The translations under genes and the position numbers were made by a program. A stretch of 64,000 nt of DNA. Origin: Escherichia phage SUT_E420. This document shows positions 20,444-60,900 of this stretch, piece by piece. The stretch lies in the sequence record OQ990039; one strand, given 5' to 3'. Below the pieces are notes generated by a model. The model was not told the DNA's origin. It was given only the letters and a program-made list of their open reading frames with translations, and searched no databases. The number at the start of each line of letters is the position of its first letter. Position 1 is the first letter of the stretch.

Positions 20444-21205
20444 TTACACCTTCCCCATGTCTTTAAAAATATCATAGAATGCTTTAGACTCAACAGAACG
20501 AACGTTATCAATCAATTCGATCATTGAGAATGGGGCATTTTCGTATTTTTCATAGACTTCCATAAGGAGTGCTAGACCTGAGTCACCTTTAATGTCTTTC
20601 TGAGCTATATCTCCGCAGATAATTAAACGGCAGTCTTGTCCTACACGAGTTAGGAGACAAATCATTGCCTCAACGGAAATATTCTGAGCTTCATCGACAA
20701 TTACATAGGAGTTGTTGAAAGTTCTGCCACGAGCATGTTCGACAGCCAAAAATTTAATTTTCTGACGTTCGACATATCCTTTATACGCATGATCGCCGAT
20801 GGCCCATTTCATACCATCAGCTATTGGCTCCAACCAAGGCTCTAGCTTTTCCGCTAGATCACCAGGAAGCATACCAAGAGACTTACCTAGAGGTTCATTA
20901 GGACGTACGAGAATCACTTGCTCAATATCTGAGTGAATGTCTGCGAGTTCCTGAGCTGCAAGAACGGACGGAATAAAGGTTTTACCAGTACCTGGCTCAC
21001 CGATACCCACAGTCACTGTGTTGTTCTTGATCATATTGATATATGATTTTTGCTCGCGGTTTTTACCTACTAGGGATTTAGCAACTGGGTTAGCGTAATC
21101 ATTAGAAAAATCAGCCTGAATTACGTTATTCTCATATTTGTTGCCACGCTTTCTTGAACCATTACGGTTCTCTCTTTTTTGACGTGCTTTTCCCATAAAT
21201 AACAC
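20444..21205 (-). CDS. phoH: PhoH-like ATPase
   Basis: Walker A GEPGTGKT and Walker B-like VIVDEAQN. Confidence 0.8.
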   Translation of the reverse strand: MLFMGKARQKRENRNGSRKRGNKYENNVIQADFSNDYANPVAKSLVGKNREQKSYINMIKNNTVTVGIGEPGTGKTFIPSVLAAQELADIHSDIEQVILVRPNEPLGKSLGMLPGDLAEKLEPWLEPIADGMKWAIGDHAYKGYVERQKIKFLAVEHARGRTFNNSYVIVDEAQNISVEAMICLLTRVGQDCRLIICGDIAQKDIKGDSGLALLMEVYEKYENAPFSMIELIDNVRSVESKAFYDIFKDMGKV

Positions 21206-21269
21206 TCCTATAGTGTACTTCGCTAACAGAGGATCAACAAAAAGATCTTGTTTATCAACTTACAAATAT

Positions 21270-21298
21270 ATTATACCAATATATACAGTAAAAAGCAA
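21270..21298 (-). promoter_or_regulatory. sigma70-type early promoter (minus): -35 TTGCTT, 17-bp spacer, -10 TATAAT
   Basis: Plus strand ATTATA-N17-AAGCAA upstream of phoH. Confidence 0.7.
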
Positions 21299-21490
21299 CT
21301 ACAATTTTAAATAAGCCTATGATATTGCATTTAAATAAAAAATTTGCTTGCTTTTAACGTGAGATGTGTGATACTAGATAATCATTTTATATCGCGTGCA
21401 CGAGTGTGTGATTATACAATTTTTAATAGAGATTGGCAAATAAAATTTTTTGACTCAGATCATGTTACAGAACTTTATAGTAAAATATTG

Positions 21491-21519
21491 TTGACATCCG
21501 CCCTCGAATGAGTTATAAT
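21491..21519 (+). promoter_or_regulatory. consensus sigma70 promoter (plus): -35 TTGACA, 17-bp spacer, -10 TATAAT
   Basis: Perfect hexamers upstream of nrdD; start of the rightward block. Confidence 0.75.
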
Positions 21520-21548
21520 AGTAGTCTTAGTTAGAGAAGGAGAGTATA

Positions 21549-23423
21549 ATGAATCGCAATGAAGAACTAAAGTATAAAGAAATGCAGGCGTTAATTAGAA
21601 ACTGCAAAGAGATTATCGAAGGGTCAGCAGATGAAGAGCTGCTGTTTAATAATGCTAATAAACCCTCAGAACGTTTCCCTACACAAAGGGATATGCTTGC
21701 AGGTGAATTGAGTAAGTATCTGATTCTAGAAGAAATGCCAATTCAGATTCGAAATGCTCATATGATTGGGGATATTCATTTCCATGATGCTGATTATGCT
21801 GCATTAGGCATGACTAACTGTTGTCTGGTAGCTTTGGAAGATATGTTGAAGAATGGTATGAAGGTTGGTAATGCTGAAATTAGCACTCCAAACTCTATCA
21901 CTACTGCGGCGGCTATTACTGCTCAGATTATCACTCAGGTTAGCTCCCATCAGTATGGTGGTACTTCTGTAGACCGCCTTGATGAAGTATTAGCCCCTTA
22001 TGTTCGTAAATCATATGACAAAAATCATGCGTTTGCAAAACGTTGGACTAAGGATGAAGCCAAAGCATCCGTAATGGCTACGGAGATGACTGAAAAGGAA
22101 GTCTATGACGCTTGTCAGGGTTTAGAATATGAAATCAATACCATGTTCAACTCTAACGGTCAGAGTCCATTTATTACCTTTGGTTTTGGTCTAGGAACTT
22201 CTTGGGAAGCACGTCTAGTACAGAAAGCAATACTGAAAGTACGCATGGATGGTTTAGGTATCAATAAACGTACAGCTATCTTCCCGAAACTGGTATTTGT
22301 ACTTCGTGATGGTGTTAACATGAAACCAGGAGATGTTAATTATGACATCAAGAAGTTAGCTATGAAATGTACTGCTGAACGTATGTATCCAGATTATATC
22401 AGCTATGACAAAGTTGTAGAAGTTACTGGAGACTATAAAGTTTCTATGGGCTGTCGTTCATTCCTAGCTGCTACAGAAGATGGTGAAACTGCCGGTCGTA
22501 ATAACTTAGGTGTTGTTTCTGTAAACTTGCCTAGAATTGCTATCGAAGCTGAAGGAAATATTGACCTATTTTTTGATTTGCTTGAACTGCGTGTGGATAC
22601 AGCGTTAAAAGCATTGGAGTGGAGAGTTGATCGCTTAAAATACATCCAAGCTAAAGCTGCACCCATCCTCTATATGTCAGGAGCCTTTGGGTTACGCTTG
22701 GAGCCTGATGAATATGTATTCGATCATTTCTATAATCGTGCTTCTGTATCTCTAGGGTATATTGGCTGCCATGAAATGCTACAGTTCATGTTTGGCAAAG
22801 ATATAGACACAATGTCCGAGACCTGCATCAAGTTTGTTCAGCGTGTATTGCAGTACATGCGGGATAGAGTCGATCAGAAGAAGGAAGAAACTAAGTTAGG
22901 TTATAGCCTGTATGCTACACCATCAGAATCCCTATGTGATCGCTTTTGTCGTCTAGACCGTGAATATTTCCCGGAACATGAAGATATTCTGTCCAAAGGA
23001 TACTACACTAACTCTCACCACCTTGATGTGGAACGTAAAGTTGCTCCTAACGTGAAATTTGATTATGAATCTAACTTTACTCCGATTGCTTCTGGTGGGT
23101 GTATTTCCTACGTAGAATTACCGGATATGAAACGATTCCCAGATGCACTGGAATGGGTTATTAATTATGCTGCTAGTAAGGTTCATTACTTCGGTATTAA
23201 TACTCCAGTGGATTCTTGCGGTAAATGTGGATTCTTAGGTGAAACAATAGCATCCGAAGATGGATTTAAGTGCCCTATCTGTGGTAATCATGACCCCGAA
23301 ACTCTTGAAGTAACTCGTCGAGTTTGTGGGTATCTTGGAAATCCGGGTGCTCGTCCATTTAACCCCGGCAAACAGCACGAGGTGATGGGCAGAGTGAAAC
23401 ATCAGGATATTCGAGCTAAATAA
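21549..23423 (+). CDS. nrdD: anaerobic ribonucleoside-triphosphate reductase (class III)
   Basis: 624 aa; C-terminal glycyl-radical motif RVCGYLG preceded by Zn-ribbon cysteines (CGKCG...CPICGNH). Confidence 0.85.
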   Translation: MNRNEELKYKEMQALIRNCKEIIEGSADEELLFNNANKPSERFPTQRDMLAGELSKYLILEEMPIQIRNAHMIGDIHFHDADYAALGMTNCCLVALEDMLKNGMKVGNAEISTPNSITTAAAITAQIITQVSSHQYGGTSVDRLDEVLAPYVRKSYDKNHAFAKRWTKDEAKASVMATEMTEKEVYDACQGLEYEINTMFNSNGQSPFITFGFGLGTSWEARLVQKAILKVRMDGLGINKRTAIFPKLVFVLRDGVNMKPGDVNYDIKKLAMKCTAERMYPDYISYDKVVEVTGDYKVSMGCRSFLAATEDGETAGRNNLGVVSVNLPRIAIEAEGNIDLFFDLLELRVDTALKALEWRVDRLKYIQAKAAPILYMSGAFGLRLEPDEYVFDHFYNRASVSLGYIGCHEMLQFMFGKDIDTMSETCIKFVQRVLQYMRDRVDQKKEETKLGYSLYATPSESLCDRFCRLDREYFPEHEDILSKGYYTNSHHLDVERKVAPNVKFDYESNFTPIASGGCISYVELPDMKRFPDALEWVINYAASKVHYFGINTPVDSCGKCGFLGETIASEDGFKCPICGNHDPETLEVTRRVCGYLGNPGARPFNPGKQHEVMGRVKHQDIRAK

Positions 23424-24102: not shown

Positions 24103-24292
24103 GGGTTTAAACGCCGCTTTGGAAAACGCATTAATGCAGCACTGGGAAACTGGCTATAAGGATGGTGTTGAATCCTGCGCTACTATGCTAGAAGTTATTG
24201 CTAATACCTTAATGGAGAAAGGCAATAAAGAATTAGCTGAGCTATTAGACAGTATTGGGCAAAACTTCAGAGAACAGGTGAAAAATGCGTAG
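24071..24292 (+). CDS. hypothetical small protein (73 aa)
   Basis: Overlaps the upstream ORF and the Sir2-like start. Confidence 0.4.
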   Translation: MAFSKPMLPDKGLNAALENALMQHWETGYKDGVESCATMLEVIANTLMEKGNKELAELLDSIGQNFREQVKNA

Positions 24293-25100
24293 ATTAATTG
24301 TTATTAGCGGTGCAGGTTTGAGTGTTGAAAGTGGTGTACGAGCTTTTCGTACTGATACTGCTAGTGGTAAAGCATTGTGGGATGATTATGATCTAGAAGA
24401 AGTATGTAATATTCATGCCTTTCGTGGTAATTTTTATCATAAAACCCATATGTTTTACAACAAGCGTCGTGAAGAGCTAAAAACTGTTGAACCCAATCTT
24501 GCGCATTTGCGTATCGGTGAATGGTATAAACAATATCCAGGTCAAGTAGTAAACTTGACTACCAACGTTGATGACCTTATTGAGCGTTCTGGCGTTCCAC
24601 ATAATGACATTCTACACATTCATGGATATTTAAAAGAGGTTGTTGTAGCTGATAGCTACAATAGTAGCAATAAACGGATTATTGATGTAGGATACAATTC
24701 TATTGATCCAGATGATTATAAATGGGTTAAACCTAATGTAATCTTCTTTGGAGAGCATGCTCCAGCATATGCGGAGATGTACAATGTTTTTGATGGTATT
24801 ACCAGTCAAGATATGATCATTGTGGTTGGTTGCTCTAACCAAGTAATTAACTTCTACTGGGAATTATTTCCTGTTCTTAATTTGACTGCTGCCAAGCTAA
24901 TGGTTGTTAACTACTATGATAGTGCCCTAGCGGCGGAACCGAGCTATCAAGGTATGACTCGTAGTGAGATGTACCAGCTGGAAGAACGCGGTATCCCTTA
25001 CTGGGGTAAAGGTGCGGTAGATGCTTTCAGTGATCCTGATTTTATTGCTCGTGTAGAAGCTCATTTAGGGGGTAGACCTTATGTGTCAGGAAATAAGTAA
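24285..25100 (+). CDS. Sir2-family (sirtuin-like) NAD-binding protein (271 aa)
   Basis: GAGLSVESGVRAFR matches the Sir2 signature GAGISxxSGIPxFR; downstream TTNVDDLIERSG and HIHGYL parallel the catalytic-region motifs; no CxxC zinc module visible. Confidence 0.7.
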   Translation: MRRLIVISGAGLSVESGVRAFRTDTASGKALWDDYDLEEVCNIHAFRGNFYHKTHMFYNKRREELKTVEPNLAHLRIGEWYKQYPGQVVNLTTNVDDLIERSGVPHNDILHIHGYLKEVVVADSYNSSNKRIIDVGYNSIDPDDYKWVKPNVIFFGEHAPAYAEMYNVFDGITSQDMIIVVGCSNQVINFYWELFPVLNLTAAKLMVVNYYDSALAAEPSYQGMTRSEMYQLEERGIPYWGKGAVDAFSDPDFIARVEAHLGGRPYVSGNK

Positions 25101-25595: not shown

Positions 25596-26024
25596 ATGTT
25601 CAATAATGTATTCTCTAAAGAAGCTAACCCAATTTTGGTTAACTTTTGGCGTACTCTTCCAGCTAGCCTGTATAATGAGGCTATTAACTCTTTGAAAATA
25701 TGGTGTGAGAATAACGAAATCTACTTTGCTTTTAAAGATGATATTGATGAAGCCCCCTGTATTGGTTTAATTGTTCAGGTAGAGGAGGGTCTTGAAGAGA
25801 TTGTCGGCTGGAAAGAGTTAGATGAAATGGGCTTAGTTTTTGCGTTAAACTATAAGCTGTTTATGCCTGCTAAGCATCGCCTCGTTGTTAACTATAAAAC
25901 TAGTGAATCTCCTGGTTTTCAAGTTAATGAACGTTACGGTTGGTCTTACTCACCAGAAGAAGTGAATGATGGTATCCAAAAACTTCGCCGTTTCGGGTAT
26001 ATGATCCCAGGTTTAACTGCTTAA
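25596..26024 (+). CDS. hypothetical protein, paralog A (142 aa)
   Basis: Shares CIG...W.EL.EMGL..ALN..LF.P...Y.P....L.R.GY..PGL with the next ORF. Confidence 0.45.
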   Translation: MFNNVFSKEANPILVNFWRTLPASLYNEAINSLKIWCENNEIYFAFKDDIDEAPCIGLIVQVEEGLEEIVGWKELDEMGLVFALNYKLFMPAKHRLVVNYKTSESPGFQVNERYGWSYSPEEVNDGIQKLRRFGYMIPGLTA

Positions 26025-26033
26025 GGAGGCAGA

Positions 26034-26423
26034 ATGGAACAAGTATATTGGCGTCAGATTGACCCTAGTTTGGTGAAACGTGCGGAGAAGCTGCTACAAC
26101 GTTGGTTGGGGGTAAGACAAGCCTCCTTCACTTTTCCTGAGCAGCAAATAGATGATCCATGCATTGGCGTTTTCCTGTCTGGATACGCCAGGGAATGGGA
26201 ACTGGATTGGAATGAGTTGTCTGCTATGGGTTTAATTGTTGCCCTAAATTTCTCTTTGTTCCATCCACGTGGTTTTGCCATATGTCGTGTGCCGGATGAT
26301 GGTTGTTCGCCCCATCTTTTACAGGTGGAAAATGATATTTGGGAGTACACTCCAGATATTCTCAAAGAAGCTAAAGAACAATTAAACCGTGTTGGGATAT
26401 ATGTTCCGGGATTAAATGACTAA
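26034..26423 (+). CDS. hypothetical protein, paralog B (129 aa)
   Basis: Tandem paralog of 25596-26024; ribosome-binding site AAGGAGG. Confidence 0.45.
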   Translation: MEQVYWRQIDPSLVKRAEKLLQRWLGVRQASFTFPEQQIDDPCIGVFLSGYAREWELDWNELSAMGLIVALNFSLFHPRGFAICRVPDDGCSPHLLQVENDIWEYTPDILKEAKEQLNRVGIYVPGLND

Positions 26424-26449
26424 TGATTTTTATTAGCTGAACTCTGATT

Positions 26450-26475
26450 ACCGAGTCATTTTGGCTCGGTTTTAT
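26450..26475 (+). terminator. rho-independent terminator
   Basis: Stem ACCGAG/CTCGGT with 9-nt loop followed by TTTTA; ends the Sir2 operon. Confidence 0.5.
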
Positions 26476-26517
26476 CCGTACTCAAGACCAATGATAGCAC
26501 CATCCGGAAAATTTTAC

Positions 26518-26546
26518 TTGCAGGATGCTCAAAATCTTGATATAAT
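26518..26546 (+). promoter_or_regulatory. sigma70-type early promoter (plus): -35 TTGCAG, 17-bp spacer, -10 TATAAT
   Basis: Followed by the family leader ATTTATATTGAATTGAGAGA; about 500 nt of non-coding leader follow before the next gene. Confidence 0.6.
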
Positions 26547-27045
26547 ATTTATATTGAATTGAGAGATATTAGTAAAAATTGATTTTGCTAATTTTTCTTG
26601 TTTACAATCCGCGATACGGAACAGTTAGGCTGCCCAATTAAGGGTTGTTTTAACTGTTACGTGTTAGTTTTTAAACAAATAGTTAATAGAATACTTAGCG
26701 ATCTGCGTCCCGTAGGAACCCTGGTAAGGCCTCGAAGCAACCTAGATAGAGGTGGTTGTGAAGTGAGACGGGAGGAGTGAAAAACTCCGAGACGTGATTC
26801 TGTAAGTTATATTGCATCTAGTATGAGCTAGTACATGAAGCATTAGGTGAGCAAATCTGGCTTAGCGGCCATCCTCAAGGATTTGTGCGGTATAGCAAAG
26901 CAGCAGCGCAGCGTGAAAGTGGAAGTTGCCACCCCACTTCAGTATTTGCGATTAATTTGTTGAGAAATTGACAGTAACAGTTGTTCTATTCTTTCTGAAT
27001 AGTCCTAAAGAAAACTTATTTCATTTCCAACACAGGAGTATTGTT

Positions 27046-29460
27046 GTGTTCTCAATCCTACAAGGTCATGCAGGATTTCATCGCGATTTAGCCACAGGCA
27101 ATTGGCGAGAAGTTAAAGCAGAAGACTATCTTTTTGCTAAAAGATTTTCCTCAAAGCATCCTGAAGGTAAACCAGCTTCAATGCCCTTCAAGTTTGATGT
27201 AATTGATGAAGTTGATCCTCAAACCCTAGTAGAAATGCTTCCTCTTATGAGACGTTTAACGTCTGACCCTCATATCGTTGCGGTACGAGGTCGATGTCTT
27301 ACACCTAAAAATAATGTGCGACGTAAGAAGGGCAACTTTAATGTATCTAACCCAAGTCATATAATTGCAATGGACGTGGATGGTATTGTAGATACAGGTG
27401 GTTGCAACAAGTTTGATCTTGTTGGCATGGCTCGACATATTATTAGAATGTTAAATAGTATTAGTGAGGATATGTTTCCTCTTGATGCAGGGTTTATCGC
27501 TCATGCATCGTCTTCGGCTGGGCTNNNNNNNNNNNNNNNNNNNNNNNNNNNNNNNNNNNNNNNNNNNNNNNNNNNNNNNNNNNNNNNNNNNNNNNNNNNN
27601 NNNNNNNNNNNNNNNNNNNNNNNNATGTTAAATAGTATTAGTGAGGATATGTTTCCTCTTGATGCAGGGTTTATCGCTCATGCATCGTCTTCGGCTGGGC
27701 TAAAACCAGGTATCCGAATGCACTTAATACTAGAATCTAATGTTAAAGTAACTCAGGGTCAAATCAAATTCTTATTTACATCTATCAACGAAAGTAGTAG
27801 ACAAAAGTATGGCTTTGATATTGCCGACTTAGCTTATTACTCTTCCGTACAGCTCCACTATTTTGCAGATCCGTTATTTACCGATGGTATAGTAGATCCG
27901 TTTAAAGCGGAGGGTGCTTCACGTCTGGTATTTGTTAAGGGTTCTAAAGTAAATTTACCCAATAATCTGGTTGACTATGAAACAACTAGAGGTGAGTTTA
28001 AGGAGGAGTTTTACTCTTTACTCGATCAAATTAAAGGTAAAAAAGCTGCCTCTGATAAAGTAGAGGAAACTATCAGCGAACTAGAAGAAGCTGAGGATGG
28101 AGTGTATCTACGTATCATACCTAAACTCTATCACAGAGCCTTAGAGGATGGTGTTGATTTTGCATGGCTAGAAAAAGAAATCCGTCCAGCCTTATCAGAA
28201 TATATTGCAACTAAAGATAACAGTCGCAATATTCAAGATTACTTTAATAACGGTCGTAAACAGGCTCTGAAAGCATTTGTTAATAATTCTAAACGTGATA
28301 TACCTGATGTTTTAAAGGGTATTCCACTTAAAAAGCTAGAAACTAATTCTCTAGAAACTGATAACTTCTTGAAATTAAATACTGTACCACCAGAAGGTTA
28401 TATGACTTTTGTAAAAGCAAGTCTAGGTACAGGTAAAACTACAGCGGTTGTGCGTTGGTTAGATTCAGGAGTTATTAAAGGTAATTTCTTAGCAATTACC
28501 AATACTAGAGCACTGGTATCTTCAAATGCCAAGAAATTTAGTGCAGGACAATATGATAAGTCTGTAGATATGCTTAATTTTAAGCGGGGTGCTATTGACC
28601 GTATGTCCACAACTATTCACTCTTTGCATAAATTCAAGAGTTTTATTGGTCAAATTGATGCAATCTTTATCGATGAATGTGATGCAGTAATGAATGACCT
28701 ATTATTCGCCCCGGTTGTTAAACAACGTCGCGAGTGTATTCAGGTTCTTCGGGATATTCTTGCAACTGCAAAAATCATTATATTATCTGATGGGGATATT
28801 AGTGCAGAAACAATTGAAGCATATGGTTCTTTGATTGAGTTTGATAAACCAGTAGCATTTTATAACCATCACCGTAAAATGCTATCAAAAGCTCATGCTT
28901 ATGAGTTCCCGGATGAATCCAGTATTTGGGTTGCACTTCAGACTTCTCTAGAGATGGGTGAGAAATCTATCCTAGTATCTGACTGTGGGCCGGATGAACT
29001 GAATGAGAAGGGTATGGCATTGCGTCGTAATACGGGTGCGTTAGTTAAGGAAATCCACTCAAANNNNNNNNNNNNNNNNNNNNNNNNNNNNNNNNNNNNN
29101 NNNNNNNNNNNNNNNNNNNNNNNNNNNNNNNNNNNNNNNNNNNNNNNNNNNNNNNNNNNNNNNGATATTAAGAAGTGTTCAAATGTCACTATCAAACCAT
29201 TCATAGAAGCTCTGAAAGGTAAGAAGAAAGATTTCTTCCTTAAAACAGGTCAGAGTGCTAACCCAAAATATGCCAGAATGTATCTTGGTATGATGGGTAT
29301 TGGTAAGGATATGAACACTGAAAATATTGTAGACTGGTACAGAACCTATTGTAAAATCGAGTGTATGCCAATCCCCTATAAGTTTATGACTGATGAGGAG
29401 AAACATATGCATGATGAAGCAATGGCAGAGCTAGGTGCTAGAAATGACAGTGAAGAATAA
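27046..29460 (+). CDS. large P-loop ATPase/helicase-like replication protein, putative origin-binding protein (interrupted by two gaps)
   Basis: Walker A LGTGKTT and Walker B IFIDECD; start set at GTG 27046 with ribosome-binding site ACAGGAG; gap at 27525-27624 is a duplication artefact, gap at 29064-29163 hides real sequence. Confidence 0.5.
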   Translation: MFSILQGHAGFHRDLATGNWREVKAEDYLFAKRFSSKHPEGKPASMPFKFDVIDEVDPQTLVEMLPLMRRLTSDPHIVAVRGRCLTPKNNVRRKKGNFNVSNPSHIIAMDVDGIVDTGGCNKFDLVGMARHIIRMLNSISEDMFPLDAGFIAHASSSAGXXXXXXXXXXXXXXXXXXXXXXXXXXXXXXXXXXMLNSISEDMFPLDAGFIAHASSSAGLKPGIRMHLILESNVKVTQGQIKFLFTSINESSRQKYGFDIADLAYYSSVQLHYFADPLFTDGIVDPFKAEGASRLVFVKGSKVNLPNNLVDYETTRGEFKEEFYSLLDQIKGKKAASDKVEETISELEEAEDGVYLRIIPKLYHRALEDGVDFAWLEKEIRPALSEYIATKDNSRNIQDYFNNGRKQALKAFVNNSKRDIPDVLKGIPLKKLETNSLETDNFLKLNTVPPEGYMTFVKASLGTGKTTAVVRWLDSGVIKGNFLAITNTRALVSSNAKKFSAGQYDKSVDMLNFKRGAIDRMSTTIHSLHKFKSFIGQIDAIFIDECDAVMNDLLFAPVVKQRRECIQVLRDILATAKIIILSDGDISAETIEAYGSLIEFDKPVAFYNHHRKMLSKAHAYEFPDESSIWVALQTSLEMGEKSILVSDCGPDELNEKGMALRRNTGALVKEIHSXXXXXXXXXXXXXXXXXXXXXXXXXXXXXXXXXXDIKKCSNVTIKPFIEALKGKKKDFFLKTGQSANPKYARMYLGMMGIGKDMNTENIVDWYRTYCKIECMPIPYKFMTDEEKHMHDEAMAELGARNDSEE
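27525..27624. other. assembly gap (100 N) flanked by identical 77-bp copies
   Basis: 27448-27524 is identical to 27625-27701; adds 59 artefactual codons to the ORF. Confidence 0.85.
29064..29163. other. assembly gap (100 N) without flanking duplication
   Basis: Flanks differ, so the true missing length is unknown. Confidence 0.8.
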
Positions 29461-37468: not shown

Positions 37469-39661
37469 TTGAAAATCGCAGTAGTTGATAAAGCTCTAAA
37501 TAACACTCGTTACGATAAACATTTCCAGCTATACGGCGAGGAAGTTGATGTATTTCATATGTGTAACGAGAAGTTATCTGGTCGTTTGCTTAAAAAGCAC
37601 ATTACTATTGGAACACCAGAAAATCCATTTGATCCGAATGATTACGATTTTGTTATACTAGTAGGTGCTGAACCTTTCCTGTATTTCGCAGGTAAGAAAG
37701 GCATTGGTGACTATACTGGTAAACGTGTAGAATATAATGGATATGCTAACTGGATTGCAAGTATCAGCCCAGCCCAGTTACACTTTAAGCCTGAAATGAA
37801 ACCAGTTTTCGATGCAACAGTAGAGAATATCCACGATATTATCAATGGTCGTGAAAAGATTGCAAAAGCTGGTGATTACCGTCCTATTACTGACCCTGAT
37901 GAGGCGGAAGAATATATCAAGATGGTGTATAATATGGTTATCGGACCTGTCGCATTCGACTCCGAAACCTCAGCACTATACTGTCGAGATGGTTATCTGC
38001 TTGGTGTTTCTATATCTCACCAAGAGTATCAGGGTGTATATATCGATTCTGATTGTCTCACAGAGGTTGCAGTATATTATCTCCAGAAAATTCTGGATAG
38101 TGAAAACCACACTATTGTTTTTCACAACTTGAAGTTTGATATGCACTTTTATAAGTACCATCTGGGACTTACTTTTGATAAAGCACATAAAGAACGCAGG
38201 CTCCATGATACAATGTTGCAGCATTATGTTCTAGATGAGCGTCGTGGTACTCATGGCTTGAAATCTCTAGCAATGAAGTATACCGATATGGGTGACTATG
38301 ACTTTGAACTAGATAAGTTCAAAGATGATTACTGCAAAGCACATAAAATCAAGAAAGAAGATTTCACCTATGATTTAATTCCGTTTGATATTATGTGGCC
38401 TTACGCTGCAAAAGATACCGATGCCACCATACGCTTGCACAACTTCTTCTTACCAAAAATTGAGAAGAATGAAAAACTTTGCAGTCTGTATTATGATGTT
38501 CTAATGCCTGGTTGTGTATTTCTCCAGCGTGTTGAGGATCGTGGTGTACCNNNNNNNNNNNNNNNNNNNNNNNNNNNNNNNNNNNNNNNNNNNNNNNNNN
38601 NNNNNNNNNNNNNNNNNNNNNNNNNNNNNNNNNNNNNNNNNNNNNNNNNNGGGTATCGTGTAATCGCATGGGACTTAACAACTGCGGAAGTTTATTATGC
38701 TGCTGTTCTATCTGGGGATAGAAATATGCAACAGGTATTTATCAATATGAGAAATGAACCTGATAAATACCCGGACTTCCACTCTAACATCGCACACATG
38801 GTATTTAAACTCCAATGCGAGCCTCGTGATGTTAAAAAGTTATTCCCAGCTCTGCGTCAGGCTGCTAAGGCAATTACCTTCGGTATTTTGTATGGTTCTG
38901 GCCCAGCTAAAGTAGCTCATTCTGTTAACGAAGCTCTTCTGGAACAGGCTGCTAAGACAGGAGAACCGTTTGTTGAATGTACTGTTGCGGATGCGAAGGA
39001 CTATATCGAAACTTACTTCGGTCAGTTCCCACAGCTTAAGCGTTGGATTGATAAGTGCCACGATCAGATTAAGAATCATGGATTTATCTATAGTCACTTT
39101 GGTCGTAAGCGTCGTCTGCACAATATCCACTCCGAAGACCGTGGTGTTCAGGGTGAAGAAATTCGTTCTGGATTTAACGCAATCATTCAGTCTGCTTCCT
39201 CTGATAGCCTCCTTTTAGGTGCTGTAGATGCAGATAATGAGATCATTTCTCTTGGCCTAGAACAAGAGATGAAGATTGTTATGCTGGTTCATGACTCCGT
39301 GGTTGCTATTGTTCGTGAGGATTTGATCGACCAATACAATGAAATCCTGATTCGTAATATTCAGAAAGACCGTGGTATCAGTATTCCTGGCTGTCCGATT
39401 GGTATTGATTCAGATTCTGAAGCTGGAGGTTCTCGTGACTATTCTTGTGGTAAGATGAAGAAACAGCACCCATCAATCGCTTGTATTGATGATGATGAAT
39501 ATACTCGTTATGTCAAGAGTGTATTACTTGATGCAGAGTTCGAGTATAAGAAACTAGCTGCAATGGATAAAGAGCATCCAGATCATAGCAAATACAAGGA
39601 TGATAAGTTTATTGCTGTATGTAAAGATTTGGATAACGTAAGAAGGATTCTCGGTGCTTGA
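37469..39661 (+). CDS. DNA polymerase, family A (internal assembly gap)
   Basis: TTG start; 3'-5' exonuclease motifs (FDSETSAL, YAAKDTD) before the gap; motif A-like WDLTTAEVYYAA, motif B RQAAKAITFGILYGSG and motif C LVHDS after it; palm/thumb region missing at 38551-38650. Confidence 0.85.
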   Translation: MKIAVVDKALNNTRYDKHFQLYGEEVDVFHMCNEKLSGRLLKKHITIGTPENPFDPNDYDFVILVGAEPFLYFAGKKGIGDYTGKRVEYNGYANWIASISPAQLHFKPEMKPVFDATVENIHDIINGREKIAKAGDYRPITDPDEAEEYIKMVYNMVIGPVAFDSETSALYCRDGYLLGVSISHQEYQGVYIDSDCLTEVAVYYLQKILDSENHTIVFHNLKFDMHFYKYHLGLTFDKAHKERRLHDTMLQHYVLDERRGTHGLKSLAMKYTDMGDYDFELDKFKDDYCKAHKIKKEDFTYDLIPFDIMWPYAAKDTDATIRLHNFFLPKIEKNEKLCSLYYDVLMPGCVFLQRVEDRGVXXXXXXXXXXXXXXXXXXXXXXXXXXXXXXXXXXGYRVIAWDLTTAEVYYAAVLSGDRNMQQVFINMRNEPDKYPDFHSNIAHMVFKLQCEPRDVKKLFPALRQAAKAITFGILYGSGPAKVAHSVNEALLEQAAKTGEPFVECTVADAKDYIETYFGQFPQLKRWIDKCHDQIKNHGFIYSHFGRKRRLHNIHSEDRGVQGEEIRSGFNAIIQSASSDSLLLGAVDADNEIISLGLEQEMKIVMLVHDSVVAIVREDLIDQYNEILIRNIQKDRGISIPGCPIGIDSDSEAGGSRDYSCGKMKKQHPSIACIDDDEYTRYVKSVLLDAEFEYKKLAAMDKEHPDHSKYKDDKFIAVCKDLDNVRRILGA
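38551..38650. other. assembly gap (100 N) without flanking duplication, inside the DNA polymerase gene
   Basis: Flanks differ; motif spacing implies roughly 150 missing residues. Confidence 0.8.
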
Positions 39662-57927: not shown

Positions 57928-60900
57928 TTAAGAATTTCCTAATGTTTTCAGACTAGCACCGTTCTCATTCAGAGCTAATTCTACTGCGTCTCTTAGAGCA
58001 CTACTATTACTAGAAGCAAACTCTCTAAAACTTGCAGCATCCATAGCACTAATATTCAAGATGATAGGTCTTCCTGAAGTTGAGTTAGATGAAGTTTTTA
58101 GCTCATCATTAGGTGTAGCTTTCATAGGAATCATAGGGGTAACTACTTCTGTACCATGCTCACCCATTTGATAGCTAACCCCAGGGTACATATTACCACC
58201 CTCAGCACGAGGAACGAAAGAGTTAGCGCTACCTATACCTTGATCGCCACGAATATAAGACAGTTCACCTGCATTAGCAGACATGGACACATCTATATTC
58301 TTCTGACGTTCTCCTAAGGTTAGGTAACTAGTTGTATCCGCTCCAGAATCTGCAATACTTGACATACCAGATGCAGAAGATGCTTGAGCAAGAGCTAAGG
58401 CACCTGCCAAACCTGCCGCCACCATCAAAGGAATAGAGAACGGGTACGGTACAGCTGTCGCCGCTTGCATTACAGCTACTGCAGTTTGGATGATGATCTG
58501 CTTCTTAGCTGCGTCTTGTTGAATCTTCAACTTTTCAGCTTCTAGTTTCTTCAACTTAGCTTTAGATGCTTCTGATTTACCATCACGTTTCTGCTCTGCT
58601 GCAATAGCCTGATCAATTGCACTAACCTGTTGACTAGTACTATATTGAATCATAGAGGCCACAGTCTGCATACCTGCTGCGATCGTGGAAGTAGTGTCTA
58701 AAGACCCCATAGAGAACTGAATCATAGCATTGGTTAAATTACCCATGCTTTGAGCTACAGCAGTTGCTTCGGAATTTAACTCAGATAGTTTAGAAATTGC
58801 CTGATCATAAGAAGCCATTCTATTTCCCATATCAGCAAAATCTTTATCTTCTCCAGATAGTCCAGTTGTAGGAGTGTACACAGCACCTAAAGAAGATCCA
58901 ACAGAAGCTTGCATCTCCGCATTTCTCTGTGCCCTTAAACCTGCTAGTTGTGCCCTAGTTTCAGCTATCTTTTTATTATATTCCGCTTGTGCCGCAGCAT
59001 TACCTAATGTTTTCTGCTTTAAGTCTTCATATAATTTTAGCTGTTCCTGTAAGCGCTCCGCATTTCCCATTAATGGTTTAGCAGTAAATTGTCTTTGCTG
59101 TTCTTCCTCTCTACCAGCAGCCATTGAAGCAATCTGATCTTGGCGGAATTTCCAGATTTCACGTTCAATTTGGGCTTGAGCACGTCTAGACTGTTCCGCC
59201 TCTTTCTGTTTATCAGCTTGTTTTGTATACCATTCGTACTTCTCTTTTTCAATGGTCAATTCAAGATTTAACTGTGCTAAACGATACTGAGTATCTGTCA
59301 TAGTACGGTTATTTAAGAGAGCTATCTCACGGTCTACACCCAGAATTTTATCTGTATAATCCTTAACTTTCTTCTGAGCTTCCATACCCTGATTGGTAAG
59401 CTTAAGTTTCTCCAGCTGAATTTTTTCAATCTCTTTCTCAACAGCTTTATTTCCCTGATTAGTTTGAAGTACACGGCGTAAAGCAGCCTCTTGCTCTTCT
59501 AACTGTTGGAGTTCTAAACGCCTACCGGCTTCCTGTGCTTTTTCTTTATCTTTAGTTTGGTTGTATACGTCAGCTATCTTCTGTTGAACTGCTAACTGGT
59601 TCTTAGTCTCATTACCGGTTAGTTTAACGTACTCAGATAAGGCCTGAGACGCAGTTTTCATTTCAGACAGAGTATTATAGCCTAGGTTAAGGTTTTTAAC
59701 ATACTCGTCTGCACTTTTACCAGTACCTTGAGATAGTGATTCTATATTTTTTATAGCATCTGCTAAAGTAGCACTAGTCTTAGCAGCAGTATCTGTATTC
59801 TGAGCAACGTTCTGTATATCATTAGCTAAGTCACTAGCAGTTTTCTTAGTCTGATTATATGCCTTTTGTTGTTCAGTTAGTCCTTTTAATACAGTAGAGT
59901 TAAAATCGTATACAGCATCAGGATCAGTAGTATCTCTCTGTAGATTAATCTGTTTCTGAAACTCTGGATTAGCTTTTGCAGCAGCAGCTCCAGCAGCCTG
60001 ATAAGCTGATTTCCAAGCATTGAGGTTCTCTGTAGAATCCTCTACTTCCTTACCGAGTCTAGTTACTTGTAGACCCATAGCTGCGGTTTCTTCTACAAAC
60101 TTTTTATTAGCTTCGGAAGCACCCGCGGCTGCAATACCAACAGGAATACCTTCACCAACTTGACGTATAGCTAGTTTTGTATAGAAATCTGCTTGTTCCA
60201 TTCGTTTATCGAACTCAGATTTTAGCTTATTACGCTTATCAAGAGATTCCTTATACATATCTAGAGCTTTATTATAGCCTTCTTCAGAAGCAGCTAAACT
60301 TAAAGCAACAGCACCAACGTTGGTAGGGTCTATCTGTCTATTAGTTTTTTCTTGAGCTCTAGCTGCCTCAGCAGATATAGAAGCCTGAGATGTATAAAAT
60401 ACTGTGTTGATAGCATCAATTACTGGCCCTAAATACTTAGCAGCAGCTTGTTGTATTTTTCTTAGTGCAGCATCTGCATTAGCAGCAAATTGCTCCCATG
60501 GAGTTGCACGTAGTACTTCATCTAGATAGCCAAACCGTTTAGTAGATTCAGCAATTACTGCATTAGCATATGCTTGTTGCTTCTGGAAAGTGGTAAGACT
60601 ATTAACATTATATGTTATACCTGTGTTTGCAGCATTTAACTGTTTAACATAATCAGCGTATGCGTCATTAAGACGGATAGTGACACCAAGTTCATCCAGA
60701 AGTTCGATTTCTTGTTTAGATACGCCCTTAATTACACGGTTAAGTGCATCAGTCATATCAACGCCAAGAACAGCAGCCGCACGACGAGCTACTAAACCAA
60801 ATTTATTAAGTTGTTCAGCATCAAATCCATAAGCAGATGCTGAAGATGCCTGTCTCATTGCTTCCTCAAAAGAAATAGCATATCCAGCAGCTTCTTGTAG

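Follow-up and report, generated by a model that had tools for sequence, protein, structure and literature searches.

We analyzed a 64,000-nt stretch of the genome of Escherichia phage SUT_E420 (sequence record OQ990039; below, the window, numbered from its first nucleotide) and focused on the gap at 26424-27045, which separates the gene for a 129-amino-acid (aa) DUF7415 protein (ending at 26423) from obp, the gene for a UL9-like helicase that starts with GTG at 27046-27048. The gap contains a terminator, a promoter, and then about 490 nt without a conserved reading frame. The interpretation that we favor, and to which we assign about an even chance of being correct, is that the region consists of a promoter and a ~490-nt structured 5′ leader RNA of the operon beginning with obp, and that this leader would act at the RNA level and in cis. 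As far as sequence comparison can show, the region has a fold on the RNA strand, conservation by compensatory changes, a fixed place before obp, and no coding frame. The leader is a new RNA family.

Promoter, transcript and predicted fold

A sequence-only reading of this stretch had placed a strong promoter at 26518-26546, and this promoter is indeed present. It is invariant across seven aligned relatives and carries an annotation in the T5 reference record (NC_005859, 58999-59073) as well as in phage S114. Its −10 element is extended by a TG at 26538-26539 (TGaTATAAT), and the spacing predicts A26553 as the transcription start. A simple promoter scan missed the site because the −35 element fits just 3 of 6 positions. 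A 59-nt promoter block also precedes other genes in Klebsiella, Proteus, and Providencia phages, and it is therefore a standard early promoter of this phage family. In phages S132 and KKP_3831, the usual promoter has given way to an HNH endonuclease cassette and another promoter, and homology resumes exactly at the predicted start. Thus, the conserved unit is the transcript and not the promoter DNA. In the T5 reference record, the promoter is followed by 471 unannotated nt up to T5.108 at 59545.

The ends of the transcript (the first ~120 nt and the last ~80 nt) are nearly invariant, and the central 290 nt exist in two versions, a type A core (the window, Lindwurm, DT57C, and chee24) and a type B core (T5, slur09, and all Epseptimavirus). 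Helices were called with RNAalifold on both core types, and the A-type and B-type alignments, folded independently, yielded the same helices at the same positions. According to this prediction, the transcript is composed of two 5′ hairpins (HP1 and HP2), a domain of ~335 nt (26651-26983) that is closed by long-range pairing, and then a further hairpin, HP3, and a start-codon hairpin. The folding energy of the transcript is −141.2 kcal/mol, below that of shuffled sequences (z = −3.1). The closure consists of a nearly continuous long stem of ~31 bp (26651-26684 with 26950-26983), a 7-bp helix (26689-26695 with 26941-26947), and a core helix (26698-26708 with 26906-26914). The elements of the locus are as follows.

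26450-26476, + strand: intrinsic terminator of the upstream operon (ACCGAG, 9-nt loop, CTCGGT, then TTTTAT), read off the sequence
26505-26546, + strand: early promoter (A/T tract, −35 TTGCAG at 26518-26523, 17-nt spacer, −10 TATAAT at 26541-26546)
26569-26591, + strand: HP1, 5′-proximal hairpin (UUAGUAAAA, loop AUUGA, UUUUGCUAA), predicted in both core types
26604-26648, + strand: HP2, outer stem ACAAUCC/GGGUUGU, enclosing the most conserved sequence block
26618-26634, + strand: HP2 inner hairpin, GG-AA-CAG-UUAGG-CUG-CC
26651-26708, + strand: long-range closure, 5′ strand (long stem 26651-26684, GAAUACU 26689-26695, GCG..CUGCGU 26698-26708)
26709-26788, + strand: domain I, with Ia closed by CCCGU/ACGGG (26709-26713 with 26768-26772)
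26737-26742 with 26754-26759, + strand: domain Ia inner helix, GCAACC/GGUUGU
26774-26788, + strand: domain Ib hairpin, GGAGU-GAAAA-ACUCC
26789-26797, + strand: single-stranded junction, GAGACGUGA (consensus GAGAAGUGA)
26807-26895, + strand: domain II, closing helix UUAUAUUGCA/UGCGGUAUAG
26852-26885, + strand: module IIb of domain II (stem CAAAUC/GAUUUG, hairpin GGCU-UAGC-GGCC at 26859-26870, 9-nt 3′ internal loop)
26906-26983, + strand: long-range closure, 3′ strand (GCGCAG..CGU 26906-26914, AGUAUUU 26941-26947, long stem 26950-26983)
26917-26939, + strand: hairpin III (AAGUGG, loop AAGUUGCCACC, CCACUU)
26986-27002, + strand: HP3, CUAUUC-UUUCU-GAAUAG, between the fold and the ribosome-binding site, with no U-run after it
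27029-27050, + strand: start-codon hairpin, AACACAG/UUGUGUU, 7 bp, with AGGAG partly in the loop and GUG paired
27046-29460, + strand: obp (T5.108), UL9-like SF2 helicase with Walker A; Pfam PF02399 (Herpes_ori_bp) at aa 393-533

At the position of HP1, the Klebsiella, Pectobacterium, and Erwinia leaders and that of a metagenomic lineage, L103, have a hairpin with a different sequence. The inner hairpin of HP2, a motif with one copy per genome, covaries, with GG/CC replaced by AG/CU in Klebsiella and CAG/CUG by CGG/CCG in L103 and Erwinia phage KEY. The junction GAGAAGUGA is kept in A-type, Erwinia, Pectobacterium, and Klebsiella leaders, and the loop motif CUUAGCGG of the domain II hairpin is invariant in all 11 of the aligned lineages. 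The stem of HP3 varies among the relatives (CUAUC/GAUAG, CUUUCC/GGAAAG, AUACUAU/AUAGUAU), and HP3 was not called a terminator by a terminator scan, which gave no terminator-like site between the fold and obp. The start-codon hairpin recurs in Klebsiella as AACAU/AUGUU with an AUG start codon; it is weak, and any regulatory role would be putative.

Covariation, strand specificity and coding potential

Domain I was evaluated on a plain MAFFT alignment of ten lineages that had not been fitted to the structure, which was drawn from the window sequence. In this domain, 82.9% of the cells were paired, compared to 37-47% when the partners were slid, and both sides had changed in 17 of the 23 pairs, compared to 4-8 after sliding. 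The covariation score was 0.553 versus at most 0.157 for slid partners, and none of 500 shuffles reached the observed values on any of the five measures. The sequence-only reading had pointed to two stems in this part, a GGAGT/ACTCC hairpin and a pairing of TCCCGT with ACGGGA. Both exist and covary, the former at 26774-26778 with 26784-26788 (AGAGU/ACUCU and GGGGU/ACCCU in relatives), and the latter as CCCGT/ACGGG at 26709-26713 with 26768-26772 (CCCAU/AUGGG, GCCGU/ACGGC, and UUCGU/GCGAA in relatives).

Domain II was realigned with a covariance model, R1, because the plain MAFFT alignment was off by one column in several rows; the resulting alignment leans toward the model. R1 detects domain II at 53 loci, with E values of 1e-13 to 1e-34. 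For domain II together with hairpin III, 81% of the cells were paired versus 40-53% when slid, both sides had changed in 16 of the 25 pairs, and 0 of 500 shuffles matched the observation on four of five measures. Hairpin III was paired in 95% of the cells, with both sides changed in 4 of its 5 pairs. For the type B cores, the alignment of T5 with Epseptimavirus is nearly gapless (single-base gaps are few and lie toward the 3′ end) and is therefore not in question. It contains six compensatory double changes, which fall in the core helix, the closure of domain II, IIa, IIb, and hairpin III. Another 14 changes are single and leave the pairing intact, being of the wobble type (such as G-C to G-U), and pairs are broken in single sequences at four positions only. 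In the long-range closure, a compensatory change is ACUGUUAC/GUAACAGU versus ACUAUUAC/GUAAUAGU. The core helix, CUGCG/CGCAG, is represented elsewhere by CUACA/UGUAG, CUGUG/CACAG, CUGUA/UACAG, CUAGAA/UUCUAG, and CUACAC/GUGUAG.

The long-range duplex was assessed free of any alignment, using RNAduplex and 300 shuffles in eight lineages. For the window, the duplex has an energy of −42.7 kcal/mol, compared to −22.7 +/- 3.8 kcal/mol for the shuffled partners (0/300), and comprises 58 bp, including 13 G-U pairs; it slightly overruns the strands listed above, on the 5′ side into the 3′ arm of HP2 and on the 3′ side past HP3. In seven of the eight lineages, the energies are between −37 and −50 kcal/mol, whereas those of the shuffled partners are about −22 to −28 kcal/mol. 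No shuffle was as good as the native duplex in five of the eight lineages; the signal was weaker in Pectobacterium phage My1 (4/300) and L103 (12/300), and the duplex of the Klebsiella leader was not significant (75/300 shuffles). Across the eight lineages, the duplexes are 45-58 bp long, and their sequences differ completely from lineage to lineage. When base-pair probabilities were compared without an alignment, 14 of 15 lineage pairs gave a positive result, of which five only were individually strong, because single-sequence folding of a 200-nt multiloop is noisy. Comparative folding across T5-like phages, which the sequence-only reading had proposed as a check, thus gave a shared architecture with compensatory changes and shows, at the level of sequence, that the predicted fold is maintained by selection.

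The fold is strand-specific. The reverse strand of the window duplex reaches only −27.6 kcal/mol, and in seven of the eight lineages (all but My1) the opposite strand yields no more than −14 to −28 kcal/mol. Each long duplex contains 7-13 G-U pairs in seven of the eight lineages and 4 in My1. Together with the wobble-type changes, these G-U pairs indicate that the fold is a property of the + strand RNA, that is, of the strand transcribed by the promoter.

No conserved open reading frame (ORF) was found, in agreement with the earlier judgment that none of the ORFs, including one of 60 aa with a TTG start, is convincing. In relatives with 95-99% identity (loci L018, L020, and L023), stop codons or frameshifts disrupt four small ORFs (60, 38, 40, and 33 aa), and the variable sites are distributed over the codon positions as 5/2/6, 5/7/6, 6/5/5, and 5/5/5, that is, without a third-position bias. 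Several GenBank records annotate hypothetical proteins of 30-60 aa in the leader region; the leader RNA accounts for such spurious small hypothetical proteins in many records of T5-like phages. The description of the region as GC-richer holds for the folded core (26651-26984), with a GC content of 43.3% versus 39.1% in the window (85th percentile), and fails for the first 180 nt (26424-26600; terminator and promoter), which are AT-rich with 31% GC.

A covariance-model search against Rfam, also proposed in the sequence-only reading, matched no family. At the gathering threshold, Rfam 15 gave only tRNAs in the whole window; for 26300-27200, E values up to 10 yielded four noise matches of 13-14 bits; and for the loci of eight relatives, E values up to 1 yielded one unrelated match of 28.7 bits outside the leader. 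The families of Rfam 15 without a match include group I and group II introns, GOLLD, ROOL, OLE, HEARO, raiA, riboswitches, 6S, and tmRNA. Among the papers searched, none describes the leader RNA and none deals with RNase III processing of T5 transcripts.

Distribution, core alleles and gene neighborhood

The source phage is a T5-like member of Tequintavirus. The region 26300-27200 is 100% identical in Escherichia phages SUT_E1520 and SUT_E520, and 522 phage records were matched, mostly from Tequintavirus and Epseptimavirus. With obp loci outside these main genera retrieved by a protein-guided search, the fold of the leader was found in Tequintavirus, Epseptimavirus, Klebsiella Sugarlandvirus, Pectobacterium phages DU_PP_V and My1, Erwinia phage KEY, and L103, the one further lineage contributed by a metagenome scan. 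At every locus found, the leader is located upstream of obp, with a single copy per genome, and the leaders in Klebsiella, Pectobacterium, Erwinia, and L103 each have their own terminator and promoter. The geometry is constant: in eight lineages, the distance from the core helix to CUUAGCGG is 160-167 nt, and the return is 42-49 nt. The motif GCTTAGCGG is located ~185 nt ahead of obp in the Klebsiella, Pectobacterium, Erwinia, and L103 leaders; Proteus phages contain a version with one mismatch, CCTTAGCGG, and Providencia phages an exact copy, both further upstream. An 18-mer scan of viral contigs gave just two additional matches, which are chance occurrences in unrelated coding DNA.

A large noncoding gap precedes obp in four of five further genera inspected (Klebsiella, Proteus, and Serratia phages and Vibrio phage Pontus); Vibrio phage D254 differs in that obp directly adjoins a 239-aa gene, with the nearest gap further upstream. 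Model R1, run with filters off, had no match at E < 0.4 in Proteus, Providencia, Serratia, and Vibrio phages. By eye, a stem, the CUUAGCGG hairpin, and an internal loop can be recognized in Providencia PR1-like phages (loci L049 and L050, ~1200-1245) and Proteus phages (L013 and L047; ~2075-2115 in L013), and in PR1 a long closing stem is formed by CUCUAACCACAUA with UGUAUGUGGUUAGGAU. These leaders may be distant members of this RNA family.

The A and B cores have a nucleotide identity of 31-59% per 100-column window, little above that of unrelated sequences, and share just short islands (GAUCUGCG, GGCUUAGCGGCC, and CGCAGC). In all 28 Markadamsvirinae loci typed, the core allele goes with the obp allele, and in the recombinants slur09 and L027 the breakpoints are at the 5′ edge of the core. 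Independently of the core type, some leaders contain an optional insert of ~97 nt between the equivalents of window positions 26592 and 26593 (1381-1477 in the Gostya9 locus, L005), which is flanked by the direct repeat TTTTTCTT and has a hairpin of its own, ATTTACGG/CCGTAAAT. This insert is present in 51 phage records, with one copy each and with both core types (DT57C, NR01, phiR2-01, bastian, and S126), and looks like an accessory module or an indel polymorphism and not like a multicopy mobile element. In phage oselot (L004, 1359-1389), the 3′ arm of HP1 is enlarged by two extra copies of the 9-mer ATTTTGCTA, annotated as a repeat_region.

Upstream of the promoter, the stem of the intrinsic terminator is kept in the alignment of the relatives, and an equivalent terminator is annotated in T5 (58952-58976) and in Lindwurm. 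The HNH cassette mentioned above contains a 453-bp homing endonuclease gene with its own promoter and lies between this terminator and the leader in S132 (L003, 1204-1830) and KKP_3831 (L007), and also in Kenya-K33. Two adjoining paralogous genes are located directly upstream, at 25596-26024 (142 aa) and 26034-26423 (129 aa; the DUF7415 gene); their products share a similar C-terminal motif (GYMIPGLTA and GIYVPGLND). A Sir2-like gene is found at 24285-25100. Among these neighbors (Sir2-like, DUF7415, and obp), there is no adjoining reverse transcriptase gene, as a retron would need; CUUAGCGG bears a resemblance to the sequence around the branching G of Ec86.

Downstream, the prediction that the next gene encodes an origin-binding ATPase was borne out: the product of obp, a UL9-like helicase with a Walker A motif, matches PF02399 with a score above the cut-off, and many records label it as a replication origin binding protein. 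Its Shine-Dalgarno motif is AGGAG at 27034-27038. Several records place the start of obp 32-41 codons too early, within the leader. This product is the protein described, under the name D2, as a bipolar SF2 helicase related to herpesvirus UL9 (Wong et al., 2013; PMC3632103). The names are in conflict, given that D2 in that study is the PF02399 UL9-like helicase, whereas genome annotations assign D2 to T5.111 and label T5.108 as the replication origin binding protein. In the window, the reading frame of obp is broken by two runs of 100 N. Altogether, there are twelve runs of exactly 100 N in the window (including 5911-6010, 27525-27624, 29064-29163, and 38551-38650), which look like scaffold joins or masking and not like biology. 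At 27525-27624, the 49 bases preceding the run recur after it, so that the peptide MLNSISEDMFPLDAGFIAHASSSAG is translated twice.

Possible functions and relation to known systems

Under the interpretation that we favor, host RNA polymerase would initiate at about 26553, and the nascent RNA would form the two 5′ hairpins and then the ~335-nt domain, with its ends zipped by 45-58 bp, while transcription would run on into obp without a terminator. Host RNase III would then cut the long duplex, freeing the folded core as a discrete RNA of ~300 nt and leaving an obp mRNA that would now begin immediately before HP3 and the weak start-codon hairpin. Such processing could set the amount and the timing of the helicase made from a very strong promoter. 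The proposed cleavage is deduced from the length of the long duplex, whose stem of ~31 bp exceeds the about 20 bp of double-stranded RNA expected at an RNase III site and is a plausible substrate for this enzyme. The unpaired motifs of the core, GAGAAGUGA, CUUAGCGG, and AAGUUGCCACC, presumably serve to contact a protein or to build tertiary structure, and an ornate core with conserved unpaired motifs would imply a bound partner.

Several observations weigh against this interpretation. A 335-nt ornate core far exceeds the needs of known translational operators or processing sites. No conserved alternative pairing that could act as a switch was found. Pairing of 26616-26627 with 26651-26662, considered as a switch competing with the long stem, is lost in S114 (C-A mismatch) and absent in Klebsiella, and the CU-rich internal loop beside the UAGC hairpin, considered as an anti-Shine-Dalgarno element, does not, by inspection, retain its complementarity to the ribosome-binding site in the Klebsiella and B-type leaders. 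Finally, the + strand folded as single-stranded DNA is likewise more stable than shuffled sequences, with z = −3.6 and the same architecture.

The sequence-only reading had offered three candidates, namely an origin of replication (or iteron region), a leader RNA with a regulatory role, and a stable noncoding RNA. Covariation, conservation from the start site onward, the strand specificity of the G-U pairs, and the lack of a terminator between the fold and obp support the two RNA candidates, whereas an iteron origin lacks support, direct and tandem repeats being absent: a repeat search of 26424-27045 gave one two-copy 11-mer with the copies 258 nt apart, and Tandem Repeats Finder gave nothing in this region. 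The AT-rich stretch at 26424-26600 (31% GC), where an unwinding element of such an origin might be sought, corresponds to the terminator and the promoter. An origin that depends on the transcript is possible, if unlikely. The promoter and the structured RNA would then constitute the primary origin of T5, via an R-loop, a processed primer, or recruitment of the obp helicase. The leader lies directly before the sole UL9-like initiator gene and at 48.5-48.9% of the T5 genome, and T5 origins reportedly map near the center of the molecule (Davison preprint; 10.1101/866236). The arrangement of a ColE1 RNA II-type system, with a promoter followed by a noncoding transcript of ~490 nt, is found here, the origin that the transcript would cross being hypothetical. 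The RNA is richer in G than in C, but this skew (+0.18) is not above that of the neighboring genes, and the core and obp alleles are always co-inherited, which may, however, be plain linkage. The absence of repeats speaks against such an origin, as does that of an antisense promoter (no promoter-like site on the minus strand within 26553-27045 in a consensus scan), and the cumulative skew reaches its minimum at a divergent junction (21.2-21.5 kb) that is 5 kb distant. This junction is a divergent intergenic region of 344 bp (21205-21549), which coincides with the cumulative GC-skew minimum of the window (the maximum lies close to 50 kb); if the skew reflects replication rather than transcription, an origin could alternatively be sought there. 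A more specific proposal, which we regard as decidedly doubtful, is that the leader RNA might be the specificity determinant of T5 initiation, a cis-acting origin RNA that would form a helicase-loading R-loop or bind the helicase. If so, each of the core alleles, A and B, would have its matching helicase allele, and there would be an RNA-defined origin in a classical double-stranded DNA phage whose origin was never located in sequence.

Alternatively, a trans-acting stable noncoding RNA could share the promoter with obp and be processed from the leader, acting, for example, as a decoy or sponge that targets a host factor or defense system. In its size, its ornate core, and its conserved unpaired loops, the leader looks more like a large stand-alone RNA than like a cis operator; its closing stem is long, like the stems flanking excised RNAs; and two divergent core alleles in one genus plus an optional 97-nt module in 51 genomes fit fast evolution under conflict. 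We nevertheless consider this rather unlikely, given that the leader has no terminator of its own and is strictly fixed before obp in every lineage, that a similarity search found no leader homologue in E. coli genomes or plasmids that could point to an RNA to mimic, and that sites complementary to the conserved loops are not overrepresented in the window, with near-matches to the UAGC hairpin located solely inside genes. The fold of the + strand as DNA could also mean that the element functions at the DNA level, with the + strand, when single-stranded (for example, after displacement in an R-loop or within a replication intermediate), folding into a site for loading or priming, analogous to the single-strand origins of rolling-circle plasmids; the loop TAGCGG resembles the CS-6 motif TAGCGT of ssoA origins. 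This is very unlikely, since G-U pairs and neutral wobble changes (GU to AU, GC to GU), which would be mismatches in DNA, are a usual feature of RNA helices, conservation begins exactly at the transcription start, and there is neither a rolling-circle plasmid context nor plasmid similarity. That the region merely contains small protein genes, or is meaningless spacer or a nonfunctional recombination scar, would fit the annotated hypothetical proteins and the mosaic nature of the region but is scarcely credible, with all four ORFs broken in near-identical relatives, no codon-position bias, and compensatory changes and a constant geometry across genera that are not expected of spacer.

T5 is one of the seven classical T phages, and yet the 471 nt before obp are unannotated in its reference record. 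To our knowledge, conserved RNAs of >300 nt with many covarying helices are rare in bacteria and phages, with about a dozen classes described. This leader is joined to the gene of an initiator helicase, near the center of the genome, where electron microscopy showed origins. Being located where control of T5 replication is expected, it provides a mutable target for two questions, the initiation of replication in T5 and the dosage of its initiator.

Several known systems share features with the leader. As in ColE1 RNA II, the T7 primary origin, and T4 oriF/oriG, a promoter drives a noncoding transcript of several hundred nt beside replication functions, and in ColE1 the fold of the RNA decides on the priming of replication; in the T5 leader, however, no RNA I-type antisense promoter and no plasmid similarity were found, and the transcript continues into a gene. 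With GOLLD, ROOL, OLE, HEARO, and raiA, the leader shares a length of >300 nt, many helices, conserved unpaired motifs, and an association with phages. These RNAs usually stand alone, often near tRNA genes, whereas the T5 leader is fixed before one gene and is confined to some Demerecviridae. Like riboswitches and other cis-acting leaders, it is a 5′ untranslated region on the same strand as its gene with a covarying fold, and its start codon lies in a small hairpin; it is, however, much larger than known aptamers, and no conserved terminator or alternative pairing that could serve as an expression platform was found. The leaders of lambda, T7, and rRNA that are processed by RNase III, with whose sites the T5 leader has no sequence similarity, are alike in architecture. 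In the lambda N leader and at the early RNase III sites of T7, a strong early promoter is likewise followed by an untranslated, long, imperfect duplex before the first gene, and the stems flanking 16S and 23S rRNA likewise enclose a large folded RNA. The lambda and T7 sites are local hairpins without an ornate interior, whereas the core of the T5 leader has conserved loops and covarying helices of its own.

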